A stretch of DNA of 64,000 bases from Candidatus Marinacidobacterium sp. (GCA_965204755.1 OZ242011.1:1824001-1888000); one strand, 5' to 3'. Counted from the stretch's first letter, positions 24,529-44,118 are shown. The notes: generated from the letters alone by a model not told the origin. Made by a program: numbers and translations.

Positions 24529-24560
24529 CGACGAAATTTGTCGCTCTCTTGATCTATCGT
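24529..24560 (+). promoter_or_regulatory. WYL/DriD-type box plus -10 (copy 1)
   Basis: CGAC gaaattt GTCG, N11, TATCGT. Confidence 0.7.
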
Positions 24561-24642
24561 TCCCGCCGCCGCCGGAAAGGGGGGTCGAGGTCGGCCCGTT
24601 GGGGGCTCTCCAGACGCTCCGAAGAGCGGCGAGGAAACGCCT

Positions 24643-24789
24643 ATGCGATACTGCCCTACAATGAACATCGTGCGGCTCGGCACCCGACTCCGGAGTGCGC
24701 CGCGCAGAACGACGAAAGAAGATATCCAGAGCGAGGCCGGCGCTTCCCGGCGGTCGAGCGGACGGAGAAGGGAGATGCCGTCGACATGA
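24643..24789 (+). CDS. 48-aa leader ORF homologous to the WYL N-terminal HTH region
   Basis: MRYCPTMNIVRLGTRLRSAPRRTTKEDIQSEAGASRR vs WYL start; stop overlaps the next ATG (ATGA). Confidence 0.55.
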   Translation: MRYCPTMNIVRLGTRLRSAPRRTTKEDIQSEAGASRRSSGRRREMPST

Positions 24790-25859
24790 GTACAACCGAT
24801 TCGTCGCCGCGGGAGAGCGGCCAGCGTTCGGCGACATCTGCCCCGGAGCGGGTGTCCGGACCGCAGACCGGCAGGAAACGGTCTTCCCTTCCAGTTTCCA
24901 CTTTTCGCGTCGCCGTTGCGATGTCGTTCGTGATCTACTGGATTTGGGGCGTCCTCACCTATCCGTTTTTCGACACCTTCGCCGACGATTTTCCGTTCGC
25001 GGACCGCGGCCCCGAGAGTCTCGCGTCTTCGGCGGTCGTGGTTGTGTTGTTCGCGGCCGTTGCCGTCGTGGGTTGGCTGAAGAACCGCGCGGAGTTTCGC
25101 CGCGCCGTCAAGGCCGTCGAGCAAGATCCGACATCCCGCATCTCGCCGCGAATACACCGGTTCCTCGAGAGGATAGATCCGACCTTCGCCCAACGGAAGG
25201 ACGGATGGAGTCGTCGCGCAGCCGAGTTCGTCGATGAAGATCTGGAGTCTCCCGACTCATTGCGAGAAGCAGTAAGCCAGTATTTCGCCAAGATCGCCCC
25301 GACGATGGCCTTTCTAACGTCGTCGAAGAAGAGGAAGATCGTCCGGCTTCGTGGCGCCATCGAGAGACTCCCCGAGTCAGTGCGAAGAAACGAAGCTCGC
25401 GAGTGGATGGCCCCGACTCGCAGCGCCTTCGAGATATTGTTTCTCGTCTTCATGCCGACTTATCTGGTCGTCAATGTGGCCGAGTGGATGGCCGGTCGAC
25501 CTTACTGGGGAGGGATCCGATTCGAGGCCTTCTTCGCATCGTTAGCCGTGACCTTCGTGTCGATCGTCATAGCGACTATCGTTCGTGTGCAACGAACGCG
25601 GAAGGACTTCGGCGAGTCGCTGGAGGGCGCATCCACCGTAGGCCTGTCAGGTCTCGCGATCGCGGAGGTGGTCGTCAATGGCCCGAGAAGCGTGGCGCAT
25701 TTCCTCGGCATGTGGTTGGCCCGCTTTTTCCTGCTTCTGAGAGTACGCAAGTGGACCACTACGATCGTGTTCGTTGGCACCCTGCTTCTTCTCTCACGAG
25801 CCTTCGTCGCTCTGTACTGCGTCATGCCTTGGACTTCACCCTGCACCACACTATTCTGA
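24786..25859 (+). CDS. Multi-pass membrane protein (paralog A)
   Basis: About 5-6 hydrophobic segments; shares KRKIVRLR, APTR and ASTVG with 33060-34043. Confidence 0.75.
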   Translation: MSTTDSSPRESGQRSATSAPERVSGPQTGRKRSSLPVSTFRVAVAMSFVIYWIWGVLTYPFFDTFADDFPFADRGPESLASSAVVVVLFAAVAVVGWLKNRAEFRRAVKAVEQDPTSRISPRIHRFLERIDPTFAQRKDGWSRRAAEFVDEDLESPDSLREAVSQYFAKIAPTMAFLTSSKKRKIVRLRGAIERLPESVRRNEAREWMAPTRSAFEILFLVFMPTYLVVNVAEWMAGRPYWGGIRFEAFFASLAVTFVSIVIATIVRVQRTRKDFGESLEGASTVGLSGLAIAEVVVNGPRSVAHFLGMWLARFFLLLRVRKWTTTIVFVGTLLLLSRAFVALYCVMPWTSPCTTLF

Positions 25860-25941
25860 ATTCTGAAGAAGCGCCCGCCGATGTCGTTGCCTTCGGGGCT
25901 CGTGCGAAGGAAGTGACGGATGTCGCCGGAGGTCGGACCAT

Positions 25942-27567
25942 TCACATGCCCCAGATGCGAATCGTCAGGGCCGCGCCCTCGGTCGGCGGCGAGTCCGGCG
26001 TGACCTCCCAAGTCCGCGGCGCCTCCGGGTCGGCCGTCCTCCGCACGGAGAGGGCTCGCTCGAAGATCCTCTCTTCCCAGGTCTTGTTCCCGGCGTCGTC
26101 GATCACGACGAGGTGACCCTCCTCGGCGTCGCAGCGGTCGAGATACCGCGCCGTCTGCGCCGCGCCCTCGCGGATGACCGTCTCGAGCGCGTCGTGTTCC
26201 CGGCGCACCTTGCACTCCACGACGAACCGCTGGAGCCGGTCGGACGCGCGCCATTCGATCAGCAGGTCGCTCCGACCCATTCCGAGGGCGTACTCCCGGA
26301 CGATTCGTCCCCCGGCGTTGACGATCCGCTGGAGGAACGCCTGCAGCAGCACCTGCACCGCCGCCTCCCGGAAAGAGAACCCCTGCGCCCACCACTCGGA
26401 GTGTTCGCGGAAGAACCCCTGGAACGCCGTCAGCAGTTTCGGGACATCCAGACTGCGGTCTGCGCGAAGGAACGGTGTGTTGTCCGCGCTGAGGCGCGGT
26501 TCCGCCGCCACCGACAGGAGTCGGGGCACGACTTCGCGGTATATCGGGTTCGCGATTTCGACTTCCCCGTTCGCCTTGGTCAGGCCGAGCGCCCGCACAT
26601 AGGCCAAGTCGGTCCGGTCCGTCGAGAGGAACCGGGCGCGGCCGGCGAGGATGGGTTCGATCACCCGACGCACGCGCGGTTCCTTCAGTCGGTCGGCGAA
26701 GTGCCGCAGGAGGATCGGGCTGTAGAGGATCAGTCGGTCCCGTGCGGCTGCCACGGCATCCCTCTCGATGGTCCGCGACCGATCCCGGCCGGCCTCGTTC
26801 TCGAAGCAGACATCTCTCGCCAGCGCGTTCACCAGCCACGGTTGGCCGGCGGTCGCGTCCCAGATCTCTTGGACAGCATCCGGAGCGAATCCCTGTCCGG
26901 TCTCCTGCGTGTGCTGACCAAAAAGCCCCTCGACTTCGCCTCGTGAGAAGTCCGGCAGCCGCAGCGACTCCGACACGATGTTGAACGAACCGGCGTCTCC
27001 CAGCGGATAGTCCCGCAGGTCCCGGAGGCCGCAGAGGACCACGCAGCGAGGGAAACGGCGCGGGCGGCGCGCGAAACGGGCGCGCAACTGGCTGAGCAGC
27101 GCGAACAGCGTGTCCGCGTCCAGGCCGTCCACTTCGTCGAGCAGCAGCACGAGGCGCTCACCGCCCGTCGTCTGCGCCCACCGCGCGAGCGACGCTCCGA
27201 TCGCATCCGCCGGGCCGCGCTTGTCGAGTTCTCCCGGCCAGATGCCATCCAGCGAATCGTCATCGAGACACGCGACAGCGGCCTCGCCGATCGCGCTCAA
27301 GACGCCGCGGACGGCCGCCTCCCGGCCTCCGCCCACCCTTCGCGCCGACTCGACGCTGGCGTACAGGGAGCGCCAACCCTCCGCAGCGAGGCGCTCCCGG
27401 AGCGCGCCGAGGACGGAGGTCTTGCCGGTCTGCCGGGGCGCGTGGAGGACGAAGTACGCGCGGCCTTCCACCAAGTCGAGGATCCGCGGGAGGTCCAGCC
27501 GGCCCAGCGGGGACACGGCGTAGTGGACTTCCGGGTCCACCGGCCCCGCCACGCTGAAACGCCGCAT
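25942..27567 (-). CDS. AAA-like ATPase with C-terminal PD-(D/E)XK-like domain
   Basis: HAPRQTGKT, LLLDEVD, GQPWLVN, GRSDLLI...VVECK. Confidence 0.85.
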   Translation of the reverse strand: MRRFSVAGPVDPEVHYAVSPLGRLDLPRILDLVEGRAYFVLHAPRQTGKTSVLGALRERLAAEGWRSLYASVESARRVGGGREAAVRGVLSAIGEAAVACLDDDSLDGIWPGELDKRGPADAIGASLARWAQTTGGERLVLLLDEVDGLDADTLFALLSQLRARFARRPRRFPRCVVLCGLRDLRDYPLGDAGSFNIVSESLRLPDFSRGEVEGLFGQHTQETGQGFAPDAVQEIWDATAGQPWLVNALARDVCFENEAGRDRSRTIERDAVAAARDRLILYSPILLRHFADRLKEPRVRRVIEPILAGRARFLSTDRTDLAYVRALGLTKANGEVEIANPIYREVVPRLLSVAAEPRLSADNTPFLRADRSLDVPKLLTAFQGFFREHSEWWAQGFSFREAAVQVLLQAFLQRIVNAGGRIVREYALGMGRSDLLIEWRASDRLQRFVVECKVRREHDALETVIREGAAQTARYLDRCDAEEGHLVVIDDAGNKTWEERIFERALSVRRTADPEAPRTWEVTPDSPPTEGAALTIRIWGM

Positions 27568-27807
27568 GCGTTGAGTATGGCCGGACCGCCGAGGAGGCGC
27601 GGGTTGCCGGAACGGCTCCGCCGCCCAGCCCGGCCCTGACCGCCCGGGCGCCCGGCCTCGCCGGGATCGAGACCCGAATTCGGCCTCGTGGGGCCCGCTC
27701 ACCGTCAATTTTCCGTCGTTCAACGGAGAACCCAGCGCGCCCGACCCCCGGCGGGCGAAATTCGGCGCCCTACCGAACCGAGCCCGCCGGAGGTCTCACC
27801 GAACACC

Positions 27808-30687
27808 ATGCACGAATACGACCGCGCCGCCGTTCGCGGCTACCTGTTGAACGCCGTCCGCGTCGCGCTGCGGAACCGCAAGGCCGCGGCGCGGCTGGCC
27901 GACTGGGTTCGCTCCAACCGCGGCGAACTGGACGAGGAGGGGATCGCGGACCTCTACGCCGTCTGCGAGACCCGCGAAGAACCCGACTCCGACCCGAACG
28001 GCTACCGAGGAATGGTTCGCGGCGGGTTCGAGTCGCCGCGCCGGGCGACCGATCGGGACCTCGCCTTCCTCTCCGAGGTCGCCGCCGCCCTCGCCGAGAC
28101 ACCGATCCTCACGCCCGGAGACGAACTCTTCTCGCGAAGCCCCACCGCTCGAGCAGCGCACCTGTTCGCGTCCCGGCTCGGATTCGACGGCGTTTCGGCT
28201 GCCGTGATCCACCTGGGTCATCTCCACGAAGAATCGGGAGTCGTCCAGAGTCTTTGGGACAACATCCACGAAAGCCGCAAGGACCCCGTCGCAACGACCG
28301 CGCTCCTGCTCGGCGCCGGTACGAAACCGGTGGACCACGCGCTGCTCGCGCTGCTCGAGGCCGGCATCTTCCGTCGCGATCGCTGGAATTCGTCGTCACT
28401 CGTCAGCAGTGTCACCGGCGGCATCGAGTCGATCTGGCAACCGCCGGTCGAGAACGACCGCCAACTCGTCGAACGCCTGCTCACGGGCCCCACCGAGCCG
28501 TCACTGGCGCTCGACCAGTTCTCCCACCTGCCGGACCGCGACGAAGCCGTCGCCCTCCTGGCCGGCGCCCTTCGGGACGCGGCCCCGGGAGTGAACCTCC
28601 TCCTGCACGGCCGCCCCGGGACCGGCAAGACCGAATTCGCCAAGACCCTGGCGGCCGCGGCGGGCGGTTGCCTCTACTCCATCGGCGAACCCGTGCCCGA
28701 CTCCGCTTCCTGGAAGCGTGACGGCGACCGGTGCCCCGAACTGCGCCGCGCCGACCTTCTCCTGAAGACGGAGCGGAAAGCGGTACTGCTCTGCGACGAA
28801 TCGGACGATGTCTTCGCCCCGCAGAGGCACGAAGAATCTCGCGATCGCCTCTTCCGGCTCCGGCTCCTCGAAGAGAACCGGACGCCCACGATCTACACGG
28901 CGAACCGAATCGACACCCTCGACGAGGCCGTGCTGCGCCGCTTCACGATCGCGCTGCGCTTCACCGCCCTCTCCCCGCGCCGGCGGACGACGATGTTTCG
29001 CCGAATGCTCGAAGAATCGAAACTTCCCGAACTGGAGGCCGCCGAAGCAAACCCGGAACTCGCAAATCGCCTGTCGGTCGAACTCGAAGCCCCGCCCGGA
29101 GTCGTGGAACGGGCGATCCTCGCCACCCGACTCACCGGAGGCGGAAAAGCCGCCCTGTTCCGCCACGCGGAGCGCCTAGAACGCACGATCTCCGGCGTAC
29201 GCGCGATCCCCCGGCTGGGCGCCCCCGTCCGGCCGAAGCACCCGTGGGCCGCTTTCTCCCACCTCGGCGCGGACGCCGAAGATGCCCGGCGCTCGCTGGC
29301 CGCCGCCGTCTTCGGAGAGCGCGGCGAAACGCCCGAAGAACCGCGCAAGGGAGTGAACTTCCTCTTCTACGGCCCTCCCGGCACCGGCAAAACGGAGTTC
29401 GCCGCGACGCTCTGCGCCGAGATCGGCGCCTGCCTCTATTCCGTCGGTCAGCGGGAGTTCGGCCCCGACGCTCGCGTAGCGGCCGACCGCTGGGAGTGTC
29501 TCGAATACGCGCTGGAATCGCTCGCCGACGAACCGGGCGCGGTAATCCTCTTCGACGAGATGGAGGACCTCCCGGGTATGCCGAAACACTGGATGAACCG
29601 CGTCCTCGAAGAGAACCGGACGCCGATCCTCTGGGCCTGCAACGCGACGGACTACTACCGAGCGTGCGAACCCTTCTTCCTCGACCGGATGCTCCTCTCC
29701 GTGGAATTCCGCTCGCTGCCCCCGCCCGCGAAACGGGAAATCTACGAAGGAATCGTCTTGAAGCGCGGCGTCGCGGACGAGACCTCCGCGGCGCTCGCCG
29801 ACGAGTTCTCCCGGATGCCCGATGTGACCCCGCGCCAGGTAACTCTCGCTTCCGCCTGGCCGGCGGTGGAAGACGGCGACGCCGACGGCATCCGCCGCAA
29901 CCTCGACCGGAAGCGCCGCCTGCGCCGCGGCGCCCCGCCGGCGTCACTCCCGAAGCCGGCCCTCTACGACCCGAAACTCCTCCGCGCCGACTGCGACCTC
30001 CTCGAACTTGCCGACCGGATCGTCCGCTGCGGCCCCCGTCGAATGGGGCTCCTCTTCTCCGGCCCGCCCGGAACCGGGAAGACCGAGTTCGTCCGCCACC
30101 TGGCGAAGCGCTGGGATCGGGAGATCCTGCCGCGCCGCGCTTCGGACCTGCTCGACCGGTATGTCGGGGAGAGCGAGAAGAACATCGCCCGCGCCTTCGC
30201 CGAGGCCCGCGACCTGGACGCGATCCTCGTGCTCGACGAAGCGGACTCGCTGCTGGCCGACCGGCGCGCGGCGCAACACCGCTGGGAACTCGGCCAGGTG
30301 AACGAACTGCTCGGCCAGATGGAGGCGCACCCGCTGCCGTTCGCCTGCACCACGAACTTCGCTGACGCGCTCGATCCGGCTGCCGCGCGGCGCTTCCTGT
30401 TCCGCGCCGAGTTCCGCTGTCTCGACCGCGCCGGCATCGCCCGGGCCTTCCGCCTGTTCTTCGAAGCGGACGCGCCGCCGGAAGCGCTCGCCCTCGAAGG
30501 TCTCACTCCCGCCGACTTCGCGAATGCCCGCGAACGCGCCATCGTCCTCGGCTTCCGGGACGAGCCCGCTCGCATCGTCGAGGACTTGCGCCGCGAGGGC
30601 CGAGCCAAGGGCGGGCCGGAGAGGCCGATCGGGTTCGCTTCCGCCACTTCCGGTCGGCGGTCGCTCCCCGTGACCCCGCCGGCGTGA
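27808..30687 (+). CDS. AAA+ ATPase with three tandem ATPase modules
   Basis: HGRPGTGKT/LCDE, YGPPGTGKT/LFDE, SGPPGTGKT/VLDEAD; RBS GGAGGT. Confidence 0.88.
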   Translation: MHEYDRAAVRGYLLNAVRVALRNRKAAARLADWVRSNRGELDEEGIADLYAVCETREEPDSDPNGYRGMVRGGFESPRRATDRDLAFLSEVAAALAETPILTPGDELFSRSPTARAAHLFASRLGFDGVSAAVIHLGHLHEESGVVQSLWDNIHESRKDPVATTALLLGAGTKPVDHALLALLEAGIFRRDRWNSSSLVSSVTGGIESIWQPPVENDRQLVERLLTGPTEPSLALDQFSHLPDRDEAVALLAGALRDAAPGVNLLLHGRPGTGKTEFAKTLAAAAGGCLYSIGEPVPDSASWKRDGDRCPELRRADLLLKTERKAVLLCDESDDVFAPQRHEESRDRLFRLRLLEENRTPTIYTANRIDTLDEAVLRRFTIALRFTALSPRRRTTMFRRMLEESKLPELEAAEANPELANRLSVELEAPPGVVERAILATRLTGGGKAALFRHAERLERTISGVRAIPRLGAPVRPKHPWAAFSHLGADAEDARRSLAAAVFGERGETPEEPRKGVNFLFYGPPGTGKTEFAATLCAEIGACLYSVGQREFGPDARVAADRWECLEYALESLADEPGAVILFDEMEDLPGMPKHWMNRVLEENRTPILWACNATDYYRACEPFFLDRMLLSVEFRSLPPPAKREIYEGIVLKRGVADETSAALADEFSRMPDVTPRQVTLASAWPAVEDGDADGIRRNLDRKRRLRRGAPPASLPKPALYDPKLLRADCDLLELADRIVRCGPRRMGLLFSGPPGTGKTEFVRHLAKRWDREILPRRASDLLDRYVGESEKNIARAFAEARDLDAILVLDEADSLLADRRAAQHRWELGQVNELLGQMEAHPLPFACTTNFADALDPAAARRFLFRAEFRCLDRAGIARAFRLFFEADAPPEALALEGLTPADFANARERAIVLGFRDEPARIVEDLRREGRAKGGPERPIGFASATSGRRSLPVTPPA

Positions 30688-30722: not shown

Positions 30723-30754
30723 CGACCGCTTCTGACGCAGCGACGGTGCAGGAT
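30723..30754 (+). promoter_or_regulatory. WYL/DriD-type box plus -10 (copy 2)
   Basis: CGAC cgcttct GACG, N11, CAGGAT. Confidence 0.5.
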
Positions 30755-30981: not shown

Positions 30982-31980
30982 ATGAACCACACCGACATCG
31001 CCACCGAACTGCCCGCCCCCGCCGCTCCGTCTCCGCGCGCGGCCGCCGATCCGCGCGACCGCTGCTTTTCCACGGGAAGAACCTACGGGCGGCGGCTCGA
31101 CTCCGGATGCCCGGACTGCGAACACCTTCCCGCTCCCGGCGCACGCGCCGGCGATACACCCCGGGTGATTCCGGCCTGCTCCACCTGTTTCCCGGCCGAT
31201 ACGGAACGAAGCGACTACGAATTCACCTTCGAGACTCCCGCCTTCGGCGACTGGATGGAGCGGGATATGGAGAGGGCGTGCCTCCGCTGCGGCGAGCGCG
31301 ACAATCCTCCCTACGGCGTCCTCCGCTGGCGCGGCCGCGCCGCCCCGCCGCGCTGCGACTGCGAGTTGCGCTGGACGGCCGCCGCCACCGCGTGGACGAG
31401 CGCCGCCGGGCTCCTCGTCCTCCCCCGCGGCGCCGCCGTCCCGACCGGCGACGGCCCGCAGGGCGGCCCCGTTCCGGTCCGCGTCTCGCTCTGGAAACGC
31501 GCCGAATACCGAGCCGCCTCCGCCCTCTTCCCCGACCCGGACACCGCCCGGCTCGCGGCGGTCACCGTGGATGCCGAAGGCGCGGTCCTCGAAGTCCGCG
31601 AAGCCGCCTTCCCGGAGAGTCTCGGCGACAGCGCCGAACCCACGCTCGCCGCGCCCGGCCCGATCCTCACCGTCGCCGCCATCCGTCCCGACCGCGCCGA
31701 GGCGCGAAAGGCGGCCCACCACCGCCTCGCCATCGCGCGAAGGCGCGCCCCGCAGCGCCTCGACCTGGACTTCCCGCTGGACCTCCCGCTCGTCGCGCCC
31801 GACCACGAGTTCTCCGACCGAGGCCCCGCCCTCCGTTTCGAGAACTGGCCCGCCGCGCTCGCCGGCGACTGGACGGCGTATTCCGCCACGCGCTTCGACG
31901 ACTCCCGGCTCCTGACCGCGGAACGCCCCGGCCGCCACACCTGCGCGGCGTGCGTCCCGGCCCCGAAGGAGTCGCCATAG
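30982..31980 (+). CDS. Hypothetical Cys-rich (putative multi-zinc-ribbon) protein
   Basis: CPDC, CSTC, CLRC, CDC, CAAC; RBS GAGGA. Confidence 0.65.
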   Translation: MNHTDIATELPAPAAPSPRAAADPRDRCFSTGRTYGRRLDSGCPDCEHLPAPGARAGDTPRVIPACSTCFPADTERSDYEFTFETPAFGDWMERDMERACLRCGERDNPPYGVLRWRGRAAPPRCDCELRWTAAATAWTSAAGLLVLPRGAAVPTGDGPQGGPVPVRVSLWKRAEYRAASALFPDPDTARLAAVTVDAEGAVLEVREAAFPESLGDSAEPTLAAPGPILTVAAIRPDRAEARKAAHHRLAIARRRAPQRLDLDFPLDLPLVAPDHEFSDRGPALRFENWPAALAGDWTAYSATRFDDSRLLTAERPGRHTCAACVPAPKESP

Positions 31981-32802: not shown

Positions 32803-32834
32803 CGACGGAATCTGTCGCCCTGTCGATCTATCGT
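32803..32834 (+). promoter_or_regulatory. WYL/DriD-type box plus -10 (copy 3)
   Basis: CGAC ggaatct GTCG, N11, TATCGT. Confidence 0.7.
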
Positions 32835-32916
32835 TCCCTTGCCGCCGGACGATGTGTGTCGAAATCGGCCGGTCGAGGGCCGGTCGGACGCTCCGACGGG
32901 CGGTGAGGAAACGAAC

Positions 32917-33063
32917 ATGCGGTATCGCTCTACGAAGAACATCGTGCGACTCGCCACCGAAGTCGGGTGTGTCCGGCACGGGATGACCAACGAGGATATC
33001 TGGAGTGAAGCCGCCGGCTTTCGGCGGCCGAGCGGACGGAGAAGGGAGACGCCTTCGACATGA
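32917..33063 (+). CDS. 48-aa leader ORF homologous to the WYL N-terminal HTH region
   Basis: MRYRSTKNIVRLATEV...; ATGA overlap with 33060. Confidence 0.55.
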   Translation: MRYRSTKNIVRLATEVGCVRHGMTNEDIWSEAAGFRRPSGRRRETPST

Positions 33064-34043
33064 GTACGCCGGATTCTCTGCCGCCGGAGAAGGCCCGGCC
33101 TTCCGCGGCCTCCGCTCCGGAAAAAGGTTTTCCGAGCGACGAGGCTCGAGCACTCGCGATGTCGCGGAGATGGTGGGTCTGCTTCGCGCTGTCCTTCGAG
33201 ATCTGGTGGGTCGGATTCGTCGCGCTCCACCCCTTCTACCCTTTCGTGGACACCGCCTTGACGCGGGCGGCGTGGGCCGCGGTTCCGGTTGCCTTGGTCG
33301 CGGCCCGTGCGGTCTTGGTGTGGGTGAGCCTTTACGAGACCATGCGTACTCTCGTGCGTGCTCTCGCTGAGAGCAAGCTGGCCGAGTCCGGTGCAGTGCA
33401 CCATTTTTGGCTTCTCATCCCGGGATTCCTCCTTGGCGGAGCGTTCTCGAAGCGCAAGATCGTGCGGCTGCGCCGCGCGGTCAAGCGAGTTCCCCGCTCA
33501 GCGCGAAAGCACCAGTTCCGTACATGGAGGGCTCCGACGCGAAACGCACTGTGGGCCTGGGGACTGATCTTCTATCCGGCTTGGTTCGTGATCGGTGCGG
33601 TGCAGGCTGTAATCGGCCGAGATCATGTGACAGGAGTCCTCGAGATATTCGGTGCGTCGGTCGGTGTGGCGGTCATGGTCGTGGCCGCGCGGACGATCGT
33701 TCTCGTGCGGCGTGCGCGGAGGAAGTTCCGCGGCTCTCTGAACGACGCATCCACCGTAGGCGTGGCGGGCCTCGTGGTCGCGGAAGTCGTCGGCAACGCG
33801 CCGAGAAGGGTCGGCCGACGGCTGACCCGCCGCTATGTGCGGTATCTGACCTCGTTCTGGCGCACGAGGCTGCTGAATTTCTTGGCCCTTCTCTTTCTCG
33901 CAGCGATCATCCTCGCTTGGTTCGACTTCACGACACTGCTGAACCACCTCTCCCGGTTGTCTCCCGGTCTCGCGGTCCTCCTCATCTGGAGGCATCGAAA
34001 GGCCCGGAAGAAGGGCGCGGGGCGCACGAGAAAAAAGGATTGA
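33060..34043 (+). CDS. Multi-pass membrane protein (paralog B)
   Basis: Hydrophobic segments; homology to 24786-25859. Confidence 0.75.
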   Translation: MSTPDSLPPEKARPSAASAPEKGFPSDEARALAMSRRWWVCFALSFEIWWVGFVALHPFYPFVDTALTRAAWAAVPVALVAARAVLVWVSLYETMRTLVRALAESKLAESGAVHHFWLLIPGFLLGGAFSKRKIVRLRRAVKRVPRSARKHQFRTWRAPTRNALWAWGLIFYPAWFVIGAVQAVIGRDHVTGVLEIFGASVGVAVMVVAARTIVLVRRARRKFRGSLNDASTVGVAGLVVAEVVGNAPRRVGRRLTRRYVRYLTSFWRTRLLNFLALLFLAAIILAWFDFTTLLNHLSRLSPGLAVLLIWRHRKARKKGAGRTRKKD

Positions 34044-34247: not shown

Positions 34248-34329
34248 TCCCCCTGCCGCCGGAAGAGGGCGTCGAGGCCGGCCCGTCGGGGGTCGGTCGG
34301 GCGTTCCGACGGGCGGCGAGGAGACGCAA

Positions 34330-35319: not shown

Positions 35320-35903
35320 CTCGACCCCTCGACCCCACCACCGCCCCGCCGCCGGCGCCCGGCGCCCCGACGAAATTCGTCGCGCTCGACTTCGAGACCG
35401 CCAATATCTGGCGCGACAGCGCCTGCGCCGTCGGCGTGGTCGTCGTTGAAGACGGCCGCATCACGCACTCCGTCCACCGCCTCATCCGCCCCCCGAAGAG
35501 TTGGTTCTCGTTCACCTGGCTCCACGGGTTGGACTGGAAGAAGGTCCGCGACGCGCCGGCGTTCGACGCCGTGTGGCGCGACCTGGCGCCGCTGTTCGAC
35601 GGAGCGGACTTCGTGGCGGCGCACAACGCCTCGTTCGACCGATCGGTGCTCGCCGCCTGCTGCAGCCGCCACGGGTTGGCCACCCCGCCGCAGCCCTTCG
35701 TCTGCTCGGTGAAGGTCGCCCGCGAAGTCTGGAACTTCTACCCGACGAAACTCTCCGATGTCTGCGCCCGGCTGGACATCCCGCTGAACCACCACGAGGC
35801 CCTTTCCGACGCGAAGGCCTGCGCCCGCATCGTCATCGCGGCCACCGCCACCGGCTGGCGCCCCCGCCTCCCCGGGTCCGCGCCGCCCCCGCCGGAGGCC
35901 TGA
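35316..35903 (+). CDS. DEDDh 3'-5' exonuclease (DnaQ-like)
   Basis: ALDFETA, AHNASFD, HHEALSDA; ATGA-coupled to the WYL gene. Confidence 0.92.
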   Translation: MTRPLDPTTAPPPAPGAPTKFVALDFETANIWRDSACAVGVVVVEDGRITHSVHRLIRPPKSWFSFTWLHGLDWKKVRDAPAFDAVWRDLAPLFDGADFVAAHNASFDRSVLAACCSRHGLATPPQPFVCSVKVAREVWNFYPTKLSDVCARLDIPLNHHEALSDAKACARIVIAATATGWRPRLPGSAPPPPEA

Positions 35904-36248
35904 ACCCCCCGCGCCGCCGGCGGGCCGCAAACGCGCCCACCGGCCGGCGCGTGCGGTCGTCGGCGCTCCCCACTCGCGAGAACGGCGCTCTTGCGGAAGG
36001 CGGGGCCGAGAACCGTCGCTTCCGACCCCCCACCGTCGCGCCGGTTCGCCTCCCGAGCGCTCGGGATTCATGGCCACCGGCGCTCGCCCGACTGCGAGCC
36101 GTCCCTCGCCGGCGTCTTGCGCCCCCTCCCGCAGTTTTCTATAGTCGCGCTCAACGGGATTCCCGCGTCCGTCCGGGCGCGTGGGCGGCGATTCGCGCCG
36201 CCGATTCGTCTCCCCACCTTTCCATCGCAGGAGTTCACCCTCCGGTTC

Positions 36249-36740
36249 ATGACGACCTCTCCGGCGGCGGCGGCACTGCGCAGCCGCACGATGCGGGCGG
36301 TTCGGTCCAAGGACACGGCCCCGGAGATGCGCGTCCGCCGCCTGGCCCACCGCCTCGGGTACCGCTACCGCCTTCACCGGAAAGACCTGCCGGGAAAGCC
36401 CGATCTCGCATTCCCGTCCCGTCGGAAAGTCATCTTCGTCCACGGCTGCTGGTGGCATCAGCATGACTGCGCTCACGGACGCCGCCTCCCGGCTACCCGA
36501 CGGGAGTACTGGCTTCCCAAATTGAGCGGGAACCGGCGCCGCGACCGGGAGAACCGGCGGCGCCTCGAGGCCTCGGGCTGGGAAGTCCTGACCGTCTGGG
36601 AATGCGAGGTGACCGACGACTCCGCGCTGCGCGCGCGGCTTCGGAATTTCCTCGGCGAGACGCTCGCCCCACCCGGAGACCCCGCGCTCCCCCTGACCGC
36701 CGAGACCCGCGACAGTTTTCGTCCGGCCCCCGGGCGATGA
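36249..36740 (+). CDS. vsr: Very short patch repair endonuclease
   Basis: MRAVRSKDTAPE, LPGKPD, FVHGCWWH, VWEC. Confidence 0.95.
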   Translation: MTTSPAAAALRSRTMRAVRSKDTAPEMRVRRLAHRLGYRYRLHRKDLPGKPDLAFPSRRKVIFVHGCWWHQHDCAHGRRLPATRREYWLPKLSGNRRRDRENRRRLEASGWEVLTVWECEVTDDSALRARLRNFLGETLAPPGDPALPLTAETRDSFRPAPGR

Positions 36741-36842
36741 TCCCCGCATGAGATCGAGTCGACCTCCCCGCGCCGGGCGCGGCAGCGTCGCAGGCGAGTC
36801 CTCCCGCTCCGCTCCCCGATCCCCGAGCCCGGAGTTCCGGTG

Positions 36843-37886
36843 ATGCCGCGGCCCTCTGCGATCAGCCTCTTCGCCGGCGCCGGCGGTCTCGACATCGGCG
36901 TCGACCGGGCGCGGATCAAGACGATCTGCGCCATCGAACTGGACCGACACTGCGCCGCGACGCTGCGCCGCAACGCCCGTCGCAAGACGGTGTGGCAGGT
37001 GGACACCCGCGCCTTGGATCCGCAACGGGTTCTCGAAGTGTTCGGCATCGAGCCCGGCGAACTCACGCTGCTCCACGGGGGGCCGCCCTGCCAACCATTC
37101 AGCCAGATCGGGCACCGACGCGGGCTCGACGACCCGCGCGGCGCCCTCGTCTTCGAGATGGCGCGATTCGCGGCCGTCCTCCGGCCTTCGGCGGTCCTGA
37201 TGGAGCAGGTTCCCACCTTTCTCCAGGCCAAGAGCGCCACGGGCGAGCCGCTCGTCGAGTCTCTGCGCGAGGCGTTCTCCCGCATCGGCTACGACCTGCA
37301 CTCGCACACCCTGGATGCCCTGCACTTCGGAGTCCCGCAGAAGCGCCGTCGCGCGTTCGTCGTGTGCGTGCCCGAAGGGCAGTCGTTCTCGTTTCCCGGC
37401 ATCGCTCCCGCGGCGGTGTCCACGGTCGGCGAAGCGATCCGGGATCTCCCGAAGCCGGCGGCCAAGGGCGTGGAGCCGGCTCTGCCCAACCACACGGACA
37501 TCACTCCCGCCCGTGATCGCCAACGCATCCGCTATGTCCCGGAGGGTCTCTGGCTCTCCAAGTCACCCGGCGTGCCCCCGGACATCATGCGCAATCTCAC
37601 GAGAAAGGACACGACGAAGTTTCGCCGCCTCCATCGTGGTCTGCCTTCCCCGACGGTTCGCTGCGGCGAACCCTTCTACCACCCGACAGAACCTCGCTAC
37701 ATCACGCCGCGCGAAGCCGCTCGACTGCAAGGCTTCCCTGACGGGCATGTTCTCGTCGGGCCGATCCGCGGACGAACGGGCCAGGTTCCCGATCTGGATC
37801 AACACCGACAGGTGGCAAACGCCGTTCCTCCGCCGCTGGCGGCGGCTGTCGCTCGAAGCATCGGAGCATCGTTGTGTCTTTCGTAG
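36843..37886 (+). CDS. DNA cytosine-C5 methyltransferase
   Basis: LFAGAGG, GGPPCQPFS, MEQV (ENV variant), PQKRRR, REAARLQGFPD, NAVPP. Confidence 0.95.
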   Translation: MPRPSAISLFAGAGGLDIGVDRARIKTICAIELDRHCAATLRRNARRKTVWQVDTRALDPQRVLEVFGIEPGELTLLHGGPPCQPFSQIGHRRGLDDPRGALVFEMARFAAVLRPSAVLMEQVPTFLQAKSATGEPLVESLREAFSRIGYDLHSHTLDALHFGVPQKRRRAFVVCVPEGQSFSFPGIAPAAVSTVGEAIRDLPKPAAKGVEPALPNHTDITPARDRQRIRYVPEGLWLSKSPGVPPDIMRNLTRKDTTKFRRLHRGLPSPTVRCGEPFYHPTEPRYITPREAARLQGFPDGHVLVGPIRGRTGQVPDLDQHRQVANAVPPPLAAAVARSIGASLCLS

Positions 37887-38866
37887 TATCCGAACTCTTC
37901 GGTCAAGCGATCGGGGCTCGGAAGGCGGCGAAGGACGCTCGAGAGGACAGCGAGACAGAGACCTCCATTCGACAGGCGTGGTGCCCGTACATGGACGCCC
38001 GGTGTGATGGCGGCGGCAACCGGGACATGATGCGAGTCGCCGCGAACGACCCGGCGATCGGGCCCCTGTTCGACAAGGCGGTCGGCGATTCGACCGGCGG
38101 CCACATTCCGTGCGGCGTTTGCAGCGTCGAGCGCCATAGCAACGGAGAGCAGTGGGCCATCTGTCCGAGACGCCTGTTGGCCTTTGGCCCCTCCGGCGTC
38201 TCCGGGTATCACGAAGCACTGGCGCAGCGGATTCTCAAGATCGGCGGCTTCGAGGCGGGACAGCGTGTCGAAGTGTGGTCCGAGATCCACCTGAAGGAGA
38301 CGGGCCCCGATCATCGGAAGTTCGATTACCGACTGGACTATGTGATGCGAGGCGTTGAGAAGAAGTCCGCACCGCTCATCATCGAGGTCATGACCTGTTC
38401 GACTTCGGGCGGCAACAAGGCGAAAGGAACGGACATGAACATGGCCTTCCGTTCCGCCGTGCTGTTCGCTCGAGGAATCCGACCGGAACCGGCGCGATCG
38501 CCCGGCGTGAATGTGCGGCAGGTGTGGGCGCGCATGGCGTCGCAACTGATCGTCAAGTCGGAGGCCGCCCTCCATTGGGGAGGCCGAGCGGTATGGGTCA
38601 TACAGGATGTGTTGGCCCAGTACATCCAAAGCCAGACGGCACTTCCTCTCGAACGCCTCCGCTCCGACGACTGGATCCCCGGCGAAGTCAATCTGATCGT
38701 CTGCAGCCTCGATGGAGGAATGAAGTTGTACTCGGGCCCGATCCGCTCGTCCAAGTCGGCTCGTCCATGTTGGCTGGAGATTCTGGGCGCCCCCCATATT
38801 CCGGCGCTGGAATCGTTGGCGCGAAAACTGGACGAGAGCGCGCCTATCGGGCAATTCGCGATCTAG
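37874..38866 (+). CDS. Putative type II restriction endonuclease, NotI-like fold
   Basis: Cys4 pattern CPY..RC..GVC..CPRR; D..IIEV catalytic-like motif; adjacent to MTase and Vsr. Confidence 0.7.
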   Translation: MSFVVSELFGQAIGARKAAKDAREDSETETSIRQAWCPYMDARCDGGGNRDMMRVAANDPAIGPLFDKAVGDSTGGHIPCGVCSVERHSNGEQWAICPRRLLAFGPSGVSGYHEALAQRILKIGGFEAGQRVEVWSEIHLKETGPDHRKFDYRLDYVMRGVEKKSAPLIIEVMTCSTSGGNKAKGTDMNMAFRSAVLFARGIRPEPARSPGVNVRQVWARMASQLIVKSEAALHWGGRAVWVIQDVLAQYIQSQTALPLERLRSDDWIPGEVNLIVCSLDGGMKLYSGPIRSSKSARPCWLEILGAPHIPALESLARKLDESAPIGQFAI

Positions 38867-39045: not shown

Positions 39046-40308
39046 TTGCTCCAGAACACCGCTTACCGCCCCCGCATCGCCGACCGGGAACTGGCGCAGC
39101 GCCTTCGCGCCGCCGGAGCGGTCCTGATCGAAGGTCCGCGCGGCTGCGGGAAGACGGAGATCGCGAGGTGCGCCGCCGCGAGCGAAGTCCTGCTGGACAC
39201 CGACCGGAACGCGCGCGAAGCGCTGGCGGTCGACCCGAGCGTCGTGCTCGCCGGCGACACGCCCCGCCTCTTCGACGAGTGGCAGTCCACCCCGGAGGTT
39301 TGGAACCACCTGCGACAAGCCGTGGACGACCGCCGCGAACGGGGCCAGTTCATCCTGACCGCCTCCGCCATCCCTCCGGACGACCGGACGCGCCACACCG
39401 GCGCGGGACGCGTCGGCCGCTTCCGTCTGCGCCCGATGTCGCTCGCCGAACTCGGCCGTTCGACGGGCGGAGTCTCCCTCCGCGAGCTGCTCGACGGGGA
39501 TCGCCCGTCCGCCGGAAAGGCGGAACTATCGGCAGCGGAACTCGCCGAGATCCTCTGCGTCGGCGGCTGGCCCGGACACCTCGACTCGCCGCCGAAAGCG
39601 GCCGCGCGCGCCAACCGTGACTACCTCGAAGACACCTGCCGAAAGGACCTGGAGCGGGCGGACGGCGTCCGCCGCGACCCGCGCCGCGTGAGCCGCTTCC
39701 TCAAGTCGCTCGCCCGCCACACCGCGACCTGCGCTTCGCTTGCGACCATCGCCCGCGATGTGGGCGGTTCGGAGGAAACCGTCGCCGCGCCCACCGCCCG
39801 CGCCTACCTCGCGGCCCTCGAACGAATCATGGTGGTGGAAGACCAGCCGCCCTGGTCGCCGCGGCTCCGTTCCCGCTCCCGCCTCCGCGCCGCGCCGAAG
39901 CGCCACTTCGCGGACCCGTCCCTGGCCGTGGCCGCCGTGGCCGCCGGCCCCGCCCACCTGCTCCGGGACTTCCGGTGGTTCGGCTTCCTCTTCGAGTCGC
40001 TGGTCGTCCGCGACCTCCGGGTGTACGCCCAGGCCACCGGCGGCCTCGTCCACCACTACCGCGACAACACCGGCCTCGAAGTGGACGCCGTCGTGGACGC
40101 CGGCCCCGGCCGCTGGGGAGCGTTCGAGGTGAAGATGGCCGCGGCCCGCGCCGACGAAGCCGCCGCGAACCTCCTCCGCTTCGCCGAACGGGTGGACACC
40201 GACCCCATCGGGAAACCGAGCGTCCTCGGCGTGATCGTCGCCAACGGCTACGCCTACCGCCGCCCCGACGGCGTCGCCGTCATCCCGATCACCGCACTCG
40301 GCCCGTAG
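39046..40308 (+). CDS. AAA_14 ATPase with DUF4143 domain
   Basis: GPRGCGKT, DEWQ, GGWP, KRHFADP, LFES, EVDAV, EVK. Confidence 0.88.
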   Translation: MLQNTAYRPRIADRELAQRLRAAGAVLIEGPRGCGKTEIARCAAASEVLLDTDRNAREALAVDPSVVLAGDTPRLFDEWQSTPEVWNHLRQAVDDRRERGQFILTASAIPPDDRTRHTGAGRVGRFRLRPMSLAELGRSTGGVSLRELLDGDRPSAGKAELSAAELAEILCVGGWPGHLDSPPKAAARANRDYLEDTCRKDLERADGVRRDPRRVSRFLKSLARHTATCASLATIARDVGGSEETVAAPTARAYLAALERIMVVEDQPPWSPRLRSRSRLRAAPKRHFADPSLAVAAVAAGPAHLLRDFRWFGFLFESLVVRDLRVYAQATGGLVHHYRDNTGLEVDAVVDAGPGRWGAFEVKMAAARADEAAANLLRFAERVDTDPIGKPSVLGVIVANGYAYRRPDGVAVIPITALGP

Positions 40309-40424: not shown

Positions 40425-40456
40425 CGACCGGAACTGACGCACGGACTCGCAACACT
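40425..40456 (+). promoter_or_regulatory. WYL/DriD-type box plus -10 (copy 5)
   Basis: CGAC cggaact GACG, N11, AACACT. Confidence 0.5.
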
Positions 40457-40585: not shown

Positions 40586-41671
40586 ATGACGCGAACACGA
40601 TCCTGTCTTCTTTCCGCACTCGCGCTCGCCCTCGCGCCGAGTCTCACCGCCGCGCAACCGAGAATCGAACGCGTAAACCTCAACGCCCGTCCGCAGTCCG
40701 ATTGCGCCGAATGGGGGGCCGCCGGCTTCCTCGAGGAGCAGCCGGTCGAGCGCATCGTCGCCTGCATCGCCGCCGGCTCCGACCCGAATGAGACTTTCGA
40801 CAGCGGCCGCACGGTTCTTCGCCATTCCGTCTCGATCGCGACAGAGAAGCGTCCGGAGTTGATCGATGTCGTAGAAGCATTGATCGCCGCCGGCGCCGAT
40901 GTCCACCACCGGGACCCGACCGCGAACGGGTCCGAGCCACTTGTCGCCGTGGCGGTGTCGGCAGCACTCGACTCGCGACACCGGGCGATCGCCGAGCGGG
41001 TCGTCGACGCGCTCCTCGAAGCCGGGGCCGACGCTGACGCTTCGGTGGAAGACAACGACTCCAGCGCCGACGGGATCACTCCCCTGATGATGGCGGCATT
41101 CAAGGACGCGCACCGCCTCGTCGAGGCTCTGATCCGCGCCGGCGCCGATCCCGAGGCCACCTTCAGCGGATTCACGCCACTCCATGCCGCCCTCGCCTCT
41201 CGCCAGAGGCCGCATGCGGTGGTCGAAGCGTTGCTCGATGCCGGCGCGGACACCGGTTTCCGATCGCCGGACGGACAACTCCCCATACATCGCGCCGCCA
41301 GACGGGCCGACGGCGGCGAGTTGATCTCCCTGCTCGCCGCTGCCGGCGCCGATGTCAACGCCCGGGCCACCGAAATGCGCGAGACGGCGCTCCATATCGC
41401 GGCCGGGCACAACTCGAATCGCGAAGTGATAGATGCGCTCCTGGCCGCCGGGGCGAATACGGAAGTACGGAGCAACGCCGGCCAGACTCCGCTGCACTGG
41501 TCGGTGATCTTCGCCCGGAGCACGACCGGCTTGGAGGCGCTGCTCGCCGCCGGCGCGGATCCGAATGTCGTCGATGTGCTGGGTCTTCTGCCCATCGAGT
41601 ATGCCGAGGACAACAAGTTGATTCGCGGAACGGGGGCCTATGTCAACCTGATTCGAGCGCGCTTGCGGTGA
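40586..41671 (+). CDS. Secreted ankyrin-repeat protein
   Basis: Signal peptide; repeated TPLH/TALH...LLAAGAD. Confidence 0.9.
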   Translation: MTRTRSCLLSALALALAPSLTAAQPRIERVNLNARPQSDCAEWGAAGFLEEQPVERIVACIAAGSDPNETFDSGRTVLRHSVSIATEKRPELIDVVEALIAAGADVHHRDPTANGSEPLVAVAVSAALDSRHRAIAERVVDALLEAGADADASVEDNDSSADGITPLMMAAFKDAHRLVEALIRAGADPEATFSGFTPLHAALASRQRPHAVVEALLDAGADTGFRSPDGQLPIHRAARRADGGELISLLAAAGADVNARATEMRETALHIAAGHNSNREVIDALLAAGANTEVRSNAGQTPLHWSVIFARSTTGLEALLAAGADPNVVDVLGLLPIEYAEDNKLIRGTGAYVNLIRARLR

Positions 41672-41687: not shown

Positions 41688-42266
41688 ATGGACTCCGAAG
41701 CCGGCCGCGCGCGCTCCACGAACGCGCTCGCCACCAACCCGGTCCCGCCCGGCGCGGAACGCCCGCGCTCGTCGGCGCCGGCCGCCGAAACGGAAACGCC
41801 CGGGACGGAAACGGAGGAAAACGAAAGGGCCGAATCGGAGGACCGGCTCGTGAGGGAAGCCGTCACCGGGGGCATGGTGGTCGTGTTCCTCATCGTCGGC
41901 GGACTGGGGGCCTACTGGTTCTGGAGCGATCCGTCTTCGCCCAACCTGATCTGGACGGCCATATGGGAGGTGCTTTGGCCTTGGGGTCTGCTGGCGGCCC
42001 TCGCGGGCGGTCTCCTGCAGGGGACGCGCTGTGCTCTCCGTATCCGTCGGGAGTCCGAAGACGGCCCCGTAGAAACCGGGGAGGCGTTCGCCCTGGCCGC
42101 CTTCGCCATGTGGGGCGTCGTGCGCGGCTTCCTCAAGGAAACGAAGGAAGACGGCCAATCTCTCGCCAAGGTCCTGGTGGTCCTCGCCGCCATCGTGTTG
42201 CTGCTCCTCGTCTTCGCGCCCTCGGCGCTCGAAGACATCAAACGCTGGCTCGAAAGCCATCTCTGA
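41688..42266 (+). CDS. Hypothetical membrane protein
   Basis: Three to four hydrophobic segments. Confidence 0.65.
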   Translation: MDSEAGRARSTNALATNPVPPGAERPRSSAPAAETETPGTETEENERAESEDRLVREAVTGGMVVVFLIVGGLGAYWFWSDPSSPNLIWTAIWEVLWPWGLLAALAGGLLQGTRCALRIRRESEDGPVETGEAFALAAFAMWGVVRGFLKETKEDGQSLAKVLVVLAAIVLLLLVFAPSALEDIKRWLESHL

Positions 42267-42420: not shown

Positions 42421-43158
42421 ATGCTCGATTCCATAAAGGCCGACATAGAGTCCGAGAAGTCCAACCGCGCCGGGCTGCTGTCCGCGCTGGGACTCCTGCT
42501 CGTCGCCGGGCTCGTGATCTACGGGTGGCAACAGCGCGAGGAGAACAACCTCGCCCGAATCACCCGGGAGAACGAGGAGTGGGAACGGCGCGTCCGCGCC
42601 GAAGAGACTCGGCAGATCCAAGCGCGCGCGAATGCCTGGAGAGGTGTCCGGGCGGCCAATGCCCGGTGGAACGAGTTGTTCCCGTGGATGGAACGGACGA
42701 CCGAACTCCGCCAGCGAGTCCTGGCCGGGGCGGCGGGCGTGGATTGGCTGCTCAGCGACAGCAACCCGCTCGATCCGTTCGGCCTCGCTCTCGGCGCGGG
42801 CGCCATCGAGATGACCAGCCGCGTGTTCGCCCAGGCGCAGGCGCAGATCCAGTTGAAGTGGCCCGAAGTCGTCGAGGTCCTGGTCGAGATGGACGAGGCC
42901 GCGGGAGCCATGTTGCGGGCCGATGCCGCGTTACCCGGTGATGAAGCAGCCGTGGCCGCCTTCGAACGCGCCAAGGAGGTGGCCTCCCGATGGGCGGATG
43001 ACGCCAACTTGATGCAGCAGGTAGCGGCCCAGGACTTCTTCAGCGCCGGCGCGTCGGCCGCCCGTCTCAACGAGACCACTGCCGAACTCATGGCGGCGCT
43101 CGGAGAGTTGATGCCCACCCCGACGCCGTCGAACACCGGCCCCCTCACTCAGCCATGA
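42421..43158 (+). CDS. Hypothetical single-TM coiled-coil protein
   Basis: RBS AAGGAG; N-terminal TM followed by a helical charged region. Confidence 0.7.
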   Translation: MLDSIKADIESEKSNRAGLLSALGLLLVAGLVIYGWQQREENNLARITRENEEWERRVRAEETRQIQARANAWRGVRAANARWNELFPWMERTTELRQRVLAGAAGVDWLLSDSNPLDPFGLALGAGAIEMTSRVFAQAQAQIQLKWPEVVEVLVEMDEAAGAMLRADAALPGDEAAVAAFERAKEVASRWADDANLMQQVAAQDFFSAGASAARLNETTAELMAALGELMPTPTPSNTGPLTQP

Positions 43159-43511
43159 CCGCCCTCCCACCCGGTCGGCGAAACGGCGCCGCCGCCTCGA
43201 CGCTCCTCTACCCGGCGACGGCGATGGCGCTCGGCGCCGCCGCCTGCATGGACGCCAGCGGCGGCGACGATCCGCTCCGGATACTCATCGGGCTCGGAGG
43301 CCCCCTCGCCACCTTGGGACTCGTGTTCCAACGCAACGCGACGATGGTGGGGATCCTCCTGGCGCTGTTCATCTGGCCGCTCGGCCTCCTCCATGCGCTG
43401 ACGAAGAGGGACCGGAGGGAAGGGGAAGACCGGGGCATCGCGAGCCGGAAGTCCGGCCGTCCCGCCGCCGCGAACCGGAAACCGCCCGCAACGACCCGGG
43501 CAACGACCTGA
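43155..43511 (+). CDS. Small membrane protein (paralog 1)
   Basis: LGAAAC, LIGLGG, FIWP..LHALTK. Confidence 0.7.
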   Translation: MTALPPGRRNGAAASTLLYPATAMALGAAACMDASGGDDPLRILIGLGGPLATLGLVFQRNATMVGILLALFIWPLGLLHALTKRDRREGEDRGIASRKSGRPAAANRKPPATTRATT

Positions 43512-43597
43512 CCCTCCATCCCCGAGCCGAAGCGCCGACCGATACCGGACGGACACCTCGCGGATCGGTTCAGCGGAGCGATCCGTCGCCCCTTCTG

Positions 43598-43629
43598 CGA
43601 CCGGATTCGGCGCAGGTCCGCCCTACCGT
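43598..43629 (+). promoter_or_regulatory. WYL/DriD-type box plus -10 (copy 6)
   Basis: TG-CGAC cggattc GGCG-CA; TACCGT 11 nt after GGCG. Confidence 0.6.
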
Positions 43630-43692
43630 CGCGGTTCCCGAAGGCGGGACGATTCGTCCCGACCCGACGACTCGACAGAAAGGAAATCCGCC

Positions 43693-43995
43693 ATGACCAC
43701 CGCGCCCACCCGAAGGCGCCGCCGCCGGCCCGCTTCGTTCTTCGTCGGCGCCGCGCTCGCGCTGTCTCTCGGCGCCGCCTGCGCGGGATCCGGCAACCCC
43801 GGCACGGACCTCCTCTTCATGCTCATCGGCGTCGGCGGCGCCATCGGAACCATCATGCTCGCGTCGCGCCGCGGCGTGATGACCACGGGAGTCGTCGTGC
43901 TGACCTTCGTCTTCTGGCCGGCCGCCCTCATCCATGTCCTGACGAAAGAGCGCGATCCAGAGAAGTTGGACATCGGGCCTTCGAGCAGCGACTGA
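43693..43995 (+). CDS. Small membrane protein (paralog 2)
   Basis: LGAAC, LIGVGG, VFWP..IHVLTK; RBS AAGGA. Confidence 0.72.
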   Translation: MTTAPTRRRRRRPASFFVGAALALSLGAACAGSGNPGTDLLFMLIGVGGAIGTIMLASRRGVMTTGVVVLTFVFWPAALIHVLTKERDPEKLDIGPSSSD

Positions 43996-44086
43996 CCCTC
44001 CGCCTCGCGTGCGAAGCCGGGCGGATACGACGATAGCGCGGGGAGGCCGCCGCCCGAATCATCGAATCGATCCGTCGCTCCAAATG

Positions 44087-44118
44087 CGACCGGATCTGGC
44101 GCAACGGCGCCCTAGTCT
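44087..44118 (+). promoter_or_regulatory. WYL/DriD-type box plus -10 (copy 7)
   Basis: TG-CGAC cggatct GGCG-CA; TAGTCT 11 nt after GGCG. Confidence 0.62.

Follow-up and report, generated by a model that had tools for sequence, protein, structure and literature searches.

In a 64,000-nucleotide stretch of Candidatus Marinacidobacterium sp. (GCA_965204755.1 OZ242011.1:1824001-1888000; hereafter the window, whose coordinates are used unless the genome is named), a short box of the form CGAC-N7-G(T/A/G)CG recurs seven times between positions 24,529 and 44,118, each time followed by a hexamer resembling a -10 element. This raises the question of whether the seven copies are promoters and, if so, which protein reads them. 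A preliminary description of the locus had assigned them to a WYL-domain protein encoded among them and related to DriD, the single-stranded DNA (ssDNA)-activated regulator of Caulobacter. Our analysis indicates that the seven sites are probably DriD-type, activator-dependent sigma-70 promoters, and that the DriD homolog encoded in the same genomic island would drive them.

All seven composite sites were found on the + strand with the positions and hexamers first reported: site 1 at 24529-24560 (box CGACGAAATTTGTCG, hexamer TATCGT), site 2 at 30723-30754 (CGACCGCTTCTGACG, CAGGAT), site 3 at 32803-32834 (CGACGGAATCTGTCG, TATCGT), site 4, the driD gene's own, at 34216-34247 (CGACACATTTTGTCG, TAAGGT), site 5 at 40425-40456 (CGACCGGAACTGACG, AACACT), site 6 at 43598-43629 (CGACCGGATTCGGCG, TACCGT) and site 7 at 44087-44118 (CGACCGGATCTGGCG, TAGTCT). 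Every box fits CGNC-N7-GNCG with an AT-rich center, and the spacing from box to hexamer is 11 nt (N11) in all seven. Third-position G+C profiles and open reading frames (ORFs) verified that the seven sites are intergenic and upstream of genes, the box starting 114, 259, 114, 114, 161, 95 and 98 nt before the start codon at sites 1 to 7, respectively; at site 4 the codon in question is the TTG start of driD. None of the seven sites coincides with a canonical -35/-10 promoter (two promoter-like matches against 1.1 expected were found in the region, both elsewhere), and none carries a TG-extended -10.

The published DriD consensus is ATACGAC(X)7GTCGTAT (PMC10853764), exemplified by the didA site ATACGTCCGTTTCTGGCGCA (PMC9186387), and at all DriD promoters described in PMC13004042 the box overlaps the place of the missing -35, and its distance from the -10 does not vary. 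In three promoter oligonucleotides given there, N11 (counted by eye) separates the box from CAAGGT (didA), CAATCT (the driD-divergent promoter, on the reverse strand) and CAAGCC (bapE). The same N11, and even the GCGCA/GTCGCA 3' flank, is found at the sites in the window. The statement that DriD binds a CGAC-N7-GTCG-type palindrome is in agreement with the published consensus, and the exact DriD spacing can now be added to it. Because published DriD promoters have the same box-N11-(C/T)AxxxT layout without a -35, the promoter type and mechanism proposed here are of an already known kind.

Motif frequency, put forward as a check in the preliminary description, gave a divided answer. In the window, where G+C is 70%, the bare 15-mer CGAC-N7-G[T/A/G]CG is not enriched (41 copies against 46.45 expected, with 76 of 100 shuffles reaching 41), but box, N11 and xAxxxT occur together seven times against 1.11 ± 1.07 expected, a count reached by none of 100 shuffles. 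When the box must be followed by C and the hexamer must be TAnnnT, there are five copies against 0.01 expected. Across the genome (3.98 Mb, both strands) the composite is found 32 times, seven of them within 24-45 kb of the window, for which density predicts 0.17. When a weight matrix was built from any six sites and the seventh ranked, the omitted site came 7th, 13th, 4th, 7th, 29th, 7th and 7th (sites 1 to 7) out of some 8 million positions. The matrix genome scan that had been suggested earlier, run with the variable spacer masked, places the seven sites at the top, with scores of 29.8 to 39.5 (the latter at site 1) and 20.3 for the next best site. The matrix scan found no further sites upstream of the AAA genes or in the right-hand island segment at 46.6-61 kb (best scores ≤0.9); the lone exception, scoring 13.4 at 32523, lacks a -10. 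Perfect CGAC-N7-GTCG palindromes also lie within two genes, at 25456-25470 in the membrane-protein gene memA and at 35368-35382 in the exonuclease gene; neither has a -10 at N11, and both were treated as chance because they are not conserved in the paralog memB or in the exonuclease gene of the sister genome.

Three of the sites belong to duplicated cassettes, which the preliminary description, correct as to the seven sites themselves, had overlooked. Each of the sites at 24529, 32803 and 34216 stands at the head of a copy of a single segment, in which the box and the -10 are followed by a leader (about 75 nt) and by the opening codons of driD. Copy C is the intact driD gene, whereas copies A and B run for 48 codons to a stop: ORF A (24643-24789, +; MRYCPT...PST*) overlaps the ATG of memA by ATGA, and ORF B (32917-33063, +; MRYRST...PST*) overlaps that of memB in the same way, so that each cassette is joined to an orphan membrane gene. 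In both, similarity to driD is lost inside the recognition helix after a 2-nt indel. ORFs A and B, which stop at the same point, cover the first third of the winged helix-turn-helix (wHTH) of driD and may act as leaders for translational coupling instead of yielding proteins. The copies are old (synonymous divergence, dS, about 0.5; nonsynonymous to synonymous ratio, dN/dS, about 0.5-0.7 on very few sites), and despite this divergence they are identical in the box half-sites and at the four defined positions of the -10 hexamer TAnnGT. The shared leader (24561-24642, 32835-32916 and 34248-34329) folds as a long hairpin that reaches almost to the Shine-Dalgarno sequence, with a consensus energy of -41 kcal/mol. 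We do not claim it as an RNA element, because among the three sequences just 1 of its 29 pairs shows a compensatory change; an Rfam scan of 24-47 kb gave two sub-threshold chance matches, neither of them to the leader.

Conservation in a sister genome carries the argument further. The nearest genome, G001, belongs to the same genus and shares the flanks of the region at 72-88% DNA identity. The shared left flank stops at an amidotransferase gene (24397) and the right flank resumes at a TonB-receptor gene (about 61036); between them G001 carries a different island of 27.6 kb, and the borders of the island in the window are defined only by this synteny. Thirteen + strand sites were found in the syntenic G001 island with the window-built matrix, a pattern search adds a fourteenth, and in 12 of the 14 a + strand ORF starts 28-280 nt downstream. 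A pattern scan of the whole G001 genome returned 13 matches, of which 10 are in the island, two upstream of a full-length driD ortholog (51% identical and outside the island) and one elsewhere, against none in the reversed control. Over 23 sites the box consensus is again CGNC-N7-GNCG with an AT-rich center, and the -10 has A at its second position in 23, T at its sixth in 23 and T at its first in 21. Homologs of the window's exonuclease, its clamp-like protein and the second and third proteins (membrane) of its ankyrin unit stand behind boxes in G001 too.

These data bear on two other explanations of the repeats. They could be chance matches, or relics of duplication with no regulatory role, and the chance-level count of the bare 15-mer, the three paralogous cassettes and the flanking sequence shared by two more sites would suit that explanation. 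However, the box and the -10 are all that the sites at 30723 and 40425 and the pair at 43598/44087 have in common with the three paralogous sites. The paralogous copies have diverged while box and -10 stayed intact, and both elements recur at the same spacing in the 14 G001 sites and at sites in other phyla; we consider this explanation very improbable. The second explanation is a sigma factor of the extracytoplasmic function (ECF) type. The ECF consensus is GGAAC or GGAT at -35 and CGT at -10, and some boxes do hold GGAAC, GGAAT or GGATC. GGAAC is present in only one of the seven sites, though, and about 20 nt from AAT to CGT is too long, on which ground the ECF reading was rejected as extremely unlikely. 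Both half-sites of the palindrome are conserved, moreover, as expected for a dimeric helix-turn-helix protein.

The candidate reader is encoded at 34330-35319 (+) by a gene whose TTG start corresponds in the alignment to the ATG of copy A and that of copy B. Its 329-aa product is a full-length, single-gene protein with wHTH, three-helix bundle (3HB), WYL (Pfam 4.9e-15) and WCX (1.9e-14) domains that matches the DriD chains 8tp8/8tpk and 9pfq over residues 2-323 of 329 (E about 1e-51). At E ≤ 0.001 a PDB search returned only DriD chains and PafC (7e-9), amounting to six distinct sequences. In the DriD-DNA structure Arg37 and Arg41 read G and C of each half-site, and the bases read by the recognition helix are G2, C4 and C1 (PMC10853764). 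The island protein retains Arg37, Arg41 and Glu40, and its recognition helix reads SRRTAERM where that of Caulobacter DriD reads GRRTAERM. The phosphate contacts Arg2, Arg36 and Thr38 are also retained, while Arg43 is replaced by Lys and Arg8 by Asn. Full-length homology and conserved base-reading residues thus bear out the earlier view that the local WYL protein is DriD-like. The driD stop overlaps the ATG of the following exonuclease gene by ATGA. In the G001 island, locus L034 (G001:C1:776945-777410) encodes a 154-aa truncated DriD, 59% identical to the protein of the window, that has the wHTH and three-helix bundle without WYL and WCX and might act as a ligand-independent competitor or activator.

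We infer that the island DriD homolog binds the seven boxes, activates from them and responds to ssDNA. A dimer of the protein would bind the pseudo-palindrome CGAC-N7-GNCG, which would take the place of a -35, its 3' end lying 11 nt upstream of the TAnnnT -10. The WYL domain would bind a ligand, most likely ssDNA, and the ligand-bound dimer would recruit the housekeeping RNA polymerase (RNAP) to promoters otherwise too weak to fire, with transcription predicted to start about 7 nt after each hexamer.

Several observations weigh against this model. The hexamers at 30723 and 40425 are poor -10 elements, these two sites have the weakest leave-one-out ranks, and the leader behind 30723 is long (about 220 nt). 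The seven sites represent about four independent lineages rather than seven events, because those at 24529, 32803 and 34216 are paralogous and those at 43598 and 44087 have a common upstream 11-mer. In the regulator, three of the seven ssDNA-contact residues named in PMC9186387 are kept (Y168, R204 and W206) and four differ (S172N, R178F, Y192H and K202D); the ligand could therefore differ. The RNAP-contact residues of DriD include S118, R120-R122, P125, G18 and A20. The Arg120-122 patch of DriD touches the RNAP beta subunit and the C-terminal domain of the alpha subunit, but in the island protein this basic patch of the 3HB (R120-R122) aligns to E-P-G-E and S118 to R; G18 and E27 are kept, A20 (to P) and E21 are not. 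This mismatch weakens the case for activation, although the protein could still activate because the host polymerase differs too. Finally, a second WYL protein of the same genome, discussed below, might read the same island boxes.

Alternatively, the boxes could be operators of a WYL-type repressor resembling CapW or BrxR, the DriD homolog sitting on the -35 region and blocking transcription until ssDNA releases it. The altered basic patch would suit this reading. WYL regulators beside defense genes are described as ssDNA-sensing repressors in PMC11662680 and PMC9122601, and the island does have defense-like genes (vsr, dcm and restriction enzyme-like genes, PDC-S01 and an IetA-like AAA protein). 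The sites have, however, neither a -35 nor a TG-extended -10 that would give activator-free activity. Their geometry is identical to that of DriD-activated promoters, and none of the PDB matches found at the threshold given above is named CapW or BrxR. We regard repression as unlikely.

The second WYL paralogue, encoded at genome 2091371-2092324, is 35% identical to the island DriD and has the helix HRTAQR, with R37 and R41 kept. Of 24 other genomes in the family, 23 encode a WYL homolog; with two exceptions these homologs are only 29-38% identical to the island DriD, and they are taken to be orthologs of this core paralogue. In many genomes of genus g2 an AddB-like gene is preceded by a common CGAC-N7-GTCG-N11-TATAGT site. 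The equivalent in the present genome (G000) is at genome 809311-809342 (box, N11, TATAGT), directly upstream of the AddB-like helicase-nuclease gene at 809362, and the site is conserved in many family genomes that have only the core WYL paralogue. As both this paralogue and the AddB-like site are widespread, a WYL damage regulon built in the same way seems to be ancestral to the family. Neither the second paralogue nor the family-wide box figured in the single-regulator picture of the preliminary description. Weaker box-N11-TAnnnT candidates lie at genome 1777044, 1629627 and 3813174, before C5-methylase-like, N4/N6-methylase-like and hflK-like genes, respectively, these identities being read from translations only.

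The core paralogue could thus be the main reader of the boxes, with the island plugged into the ancestral regulon. Its near-universal presence in the family, its retained base-reading arginines and the AddB-like site would all accord with that. The distribution of the sites points the other way: among 28 family genomes, only G000 (nine matches, control two) and G001 (18, control two) exceed background, the other 26 having 0-6 matches against 0-11 in controls. The two genomes with many-site islands are two of the three that carry an island-type DriD (50-51% identical), although the third, G013, has no pattern match. The island-type driD is preceded by boxes in G000 and G001 and by a variant box in G013, whereas near the core WYL gene no site scores at least 12, the nearest being 4-7 kb upstream. 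The core paralogue is therefore an improbable main reader, and we retain the island DriD homolog as the probable one.

Outside the family, the closest DriD homologs (48-56% identity) are in metagenome-assembled genomes of marine Pseudomonadales (gammaproteobacteria) and of alphaproteobacteria. At four loci (L042, L044, L045 and L046) box, N11 and TAnnnT precede an AAA-ATPase gene that is itself upstream of driD on the same strand. In the window, a triple-AAA protein of 999 aa is encoded at 27688-30687, and its C-terminal half is about 40% identical to the ATPase directly upstream of driD in the closest homolog loci. The DriD-AAA pairing may be a conserved core module; in the window no box precedes the 27688-30687 gene.

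Under control by the island DriD homolog, the seven promoters would drive seven units. The first would comprise ORF A and memA (24786-25859, +; 357 aa), and the third ORF B and its paralog memB (33060-34043, +), each membrane protein having about five predicted helices. The memA and memB products are orphans: among 5.8 billion proteins memA has only six close homologs, all at least 66% identical, no family was found for it in Pfam, PHROG or PADLOC, and its Atlas matches score ≤0.80 and are uninformative. Unit 2 would be a 332-aa protein with 11 cysteines and no family (30982-31980, +). Unit 4, which would include positive autoregulation, would consist of driD and the gene for a DEDDh (DnaQ-like) 3'-5' exonuclease (35316-35903, +). 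It might continue through genes on the same strand for a Vsr endonuclease (35991-36740), a C5 cytosine methylase (36840-37886), a type II restriction enzyme-like protein (37874-38866; weak match) and an AAA_14/DUF4143 ATPase that is the PADLOC candidate PDC-S01 (39046-40308); its end was not resolved by terminator or promoter scans. Unit 5 would be an ankyrin-repeat protein with a signal-peptide-like N-terminus (40586-41671, +) and three membrane proteins (41688-42266, 42421-43158 and 43155-43511, all +). The last of these, of 118 aa, is a paralog of the 100-aa membrane protein of the putative unit 6 (43693-43995, +). Unit 7 would pair a diverged beta-clamp-like protein (44185-45135, +) with a dnaB paralog, dnaB2 (45162-46625, +).

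The earlier gene descriptions hold for the membrane paralogs, the Cys-rich protein, the secreted-type ankyrin protein, the small membrane protein, the clamp-like protein and dnaB; the clamp-paralog/dnaB pair is present as reported, but it had escaped notice that dnaB occurs twice in the genome, the island gene being 75% identical to its chromosomal counterpart. Residues 30-150 of the clamp-like protein resemble a beta-clamp domain (PHROG 947, E 1e-4), its remote homologs carry DNA_pol3_beta, and its top Foldseek matches are all sliding clamps (E about 3e-5), on a model whose mean predicted local distance difference test (pLDDT) score is only 51. The protein also has a twin-arginine translocation (Tat)-type N-terminal motif (Pfam TAT_signal), which is conserved in the G001 homolog and in P0013 and is odd for a sliding-clamp fold. 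On the opposite strand, 25942-27723 encodes an AAA plus PD-(D/E)XK_9 protein with 15 further copies in the genome (43-64% identity), several in tandem at 540-566 kb. To call the membrane proteins effectors, as was done before, is a guess. DidA of Caulobacter, a small membrane protein, and AciT of Acinetobacter are described as inhibitors of division that DNA damage induces through the same type of activator, and some of the small membrane proteins here may, by analogy, act on division or on the envelope.

Versions of the island near-identical to about 97% identical to the present one exist in other samples (contigs of four DNA runs, with 1,260 variant positions). We considered a prophage, an integrative and conjugative element or an integron and rejected them: no complete integrase or recombinase was found, only an rve-type integrase core fragment (49567-49995) in the right part of the island, and border repeats were not searched for. 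tRNA genes lie 3 kb to the left of the island, with conserved genes between. The 5' part of the TonB-receptor gene is duplicated (55941-57431 and 60818-62827; 943 nt, 88% against the G001 gene), with about 3.5 kb between the copies, and the duplicated segment marks the right border of the variable region.

What is new here is the occurrence of putative DriD-type promoters in an acidobacterium, clustered in a hypervariable island, with duplicated driD cassettes and a cargo of membrane proteins, a secreted-type ankyrin protein, a beta-clamp-like protein, a dnaB paralog, a DEDDh exonuclease and a restriction-modification module. DriD-type control is known from a few scattered chromosomal promoters in Caulobacter and Acinetobacter; here it would lie outside the Proteobacteria and wire a whole island. 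More tentatively, the stretch between the amidotransferase and TonB-receptor genes could be a cassette hotspot of the genus in which nearly every gene that arrives or is duplicated has its own DriD-box promoter (seven units here, 14 in the sister), so that one ssDNA-sensing activator would fire a changing membrane- and DNA-acting arsenal upon phage attack or DNA damage, the driD fragment serving as a portable expression cassette. If so, the regulon would have been built by promoter capture rather than operon growth. DriD-type control of the island, if real, would be a natural example of regulon growth by copying a promoter plus a piece of the regulator gene. About 20 genes of unknown function, mostly for small membrane proteins, would be predicted to be ssDNA-induced and would be candidates for DidA/AciT-like division inhibitors or abortive-infection effectors. 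The box-N11-TAnnnT rule would also allow the DriD regulons of uncultured bacteria to be predicted.

Among WYL activators, PafBC recognizes the motif TGTCGG-N10-TA-N3-T. It is triggered by ssDNA and its motif, at about -26, replaces the -35 (PMC11804915); the island boxes have their 3' half-site at about -27 to -24, close to that position, which makes the comparison drawn in the preliminary description apt in position. Unlike the system described here, PafBC acts as a heterodimer and needs RNAP to bind DNA, and the match to PafC is weak (E 7e-9). In the island there is one WYL gene and the next gene is the DEDDh exonuclease, rather than the two adjacent genes of PafB and PafC. CapW and BrxR resemble the island protein as ssDNA-sensing wHTH-WYL-WCX proteins beside defense genes, but they are described as repressing their own neighboring operon, whereas the island has seven promoters without a -35 and a protein closest to DriD. 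Acinetobacter DdaA is a WYL activator with the same CGAC-N7-GTCG box that is activated by DNA damage and controls a cell-division inhibitor (PMC13010146); the likeness is drawn from its description. The DdaA targets given there are individual genes (aciT, recA, ssb, uvrA, dgt and three ACIAD loci) rather than one island.

A literature search on DriD and defense islands (titles and abstracts) and on the WYL domain in Acidobacteria or sponge turned up no account of this arrangement, the supplements of the DriD papers (PMC10853764, PMC9186387, PMC13004042) lying outside this scope and possibly listing non-proteobacterial homologs or spacing. Of the "undescribed module" announced earlier, the island accordingly stands, while the promoter architecture itself was published in 2026. 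The closest counterpart is the DriD system of Caulobacter crescentus, whose regulon includes didA, driD/CCNA_01149, bapE, recA, recJ, dnaG and CCNA_02375. Both systems have a homodimer-type wHTH-3HB-WYL-WCX regulator, a CGNC-N7-GNCG box with an AT-rich center, a box at the regulator's own gene, promoters in which the box replaces the -35 at a fixed N11 from a (C/T)AnnnT -10, and targets that include DNA-transaction genes and small membrane proteins. They differ in host, here an acidobacterium, in cargo, which here consists mostly of orphan genes, and in layout, as the Caulobacter sites are scattered on the chromosome and the present seven fall in 20 kb of a variable island. In the Caulobacterales loci a single box stands at the driD start codon and points away from the gene (PMC9186387), whereas here the box lies 114 nt upstream and points into driD, and positive feedback on the activator would therefore be expected.

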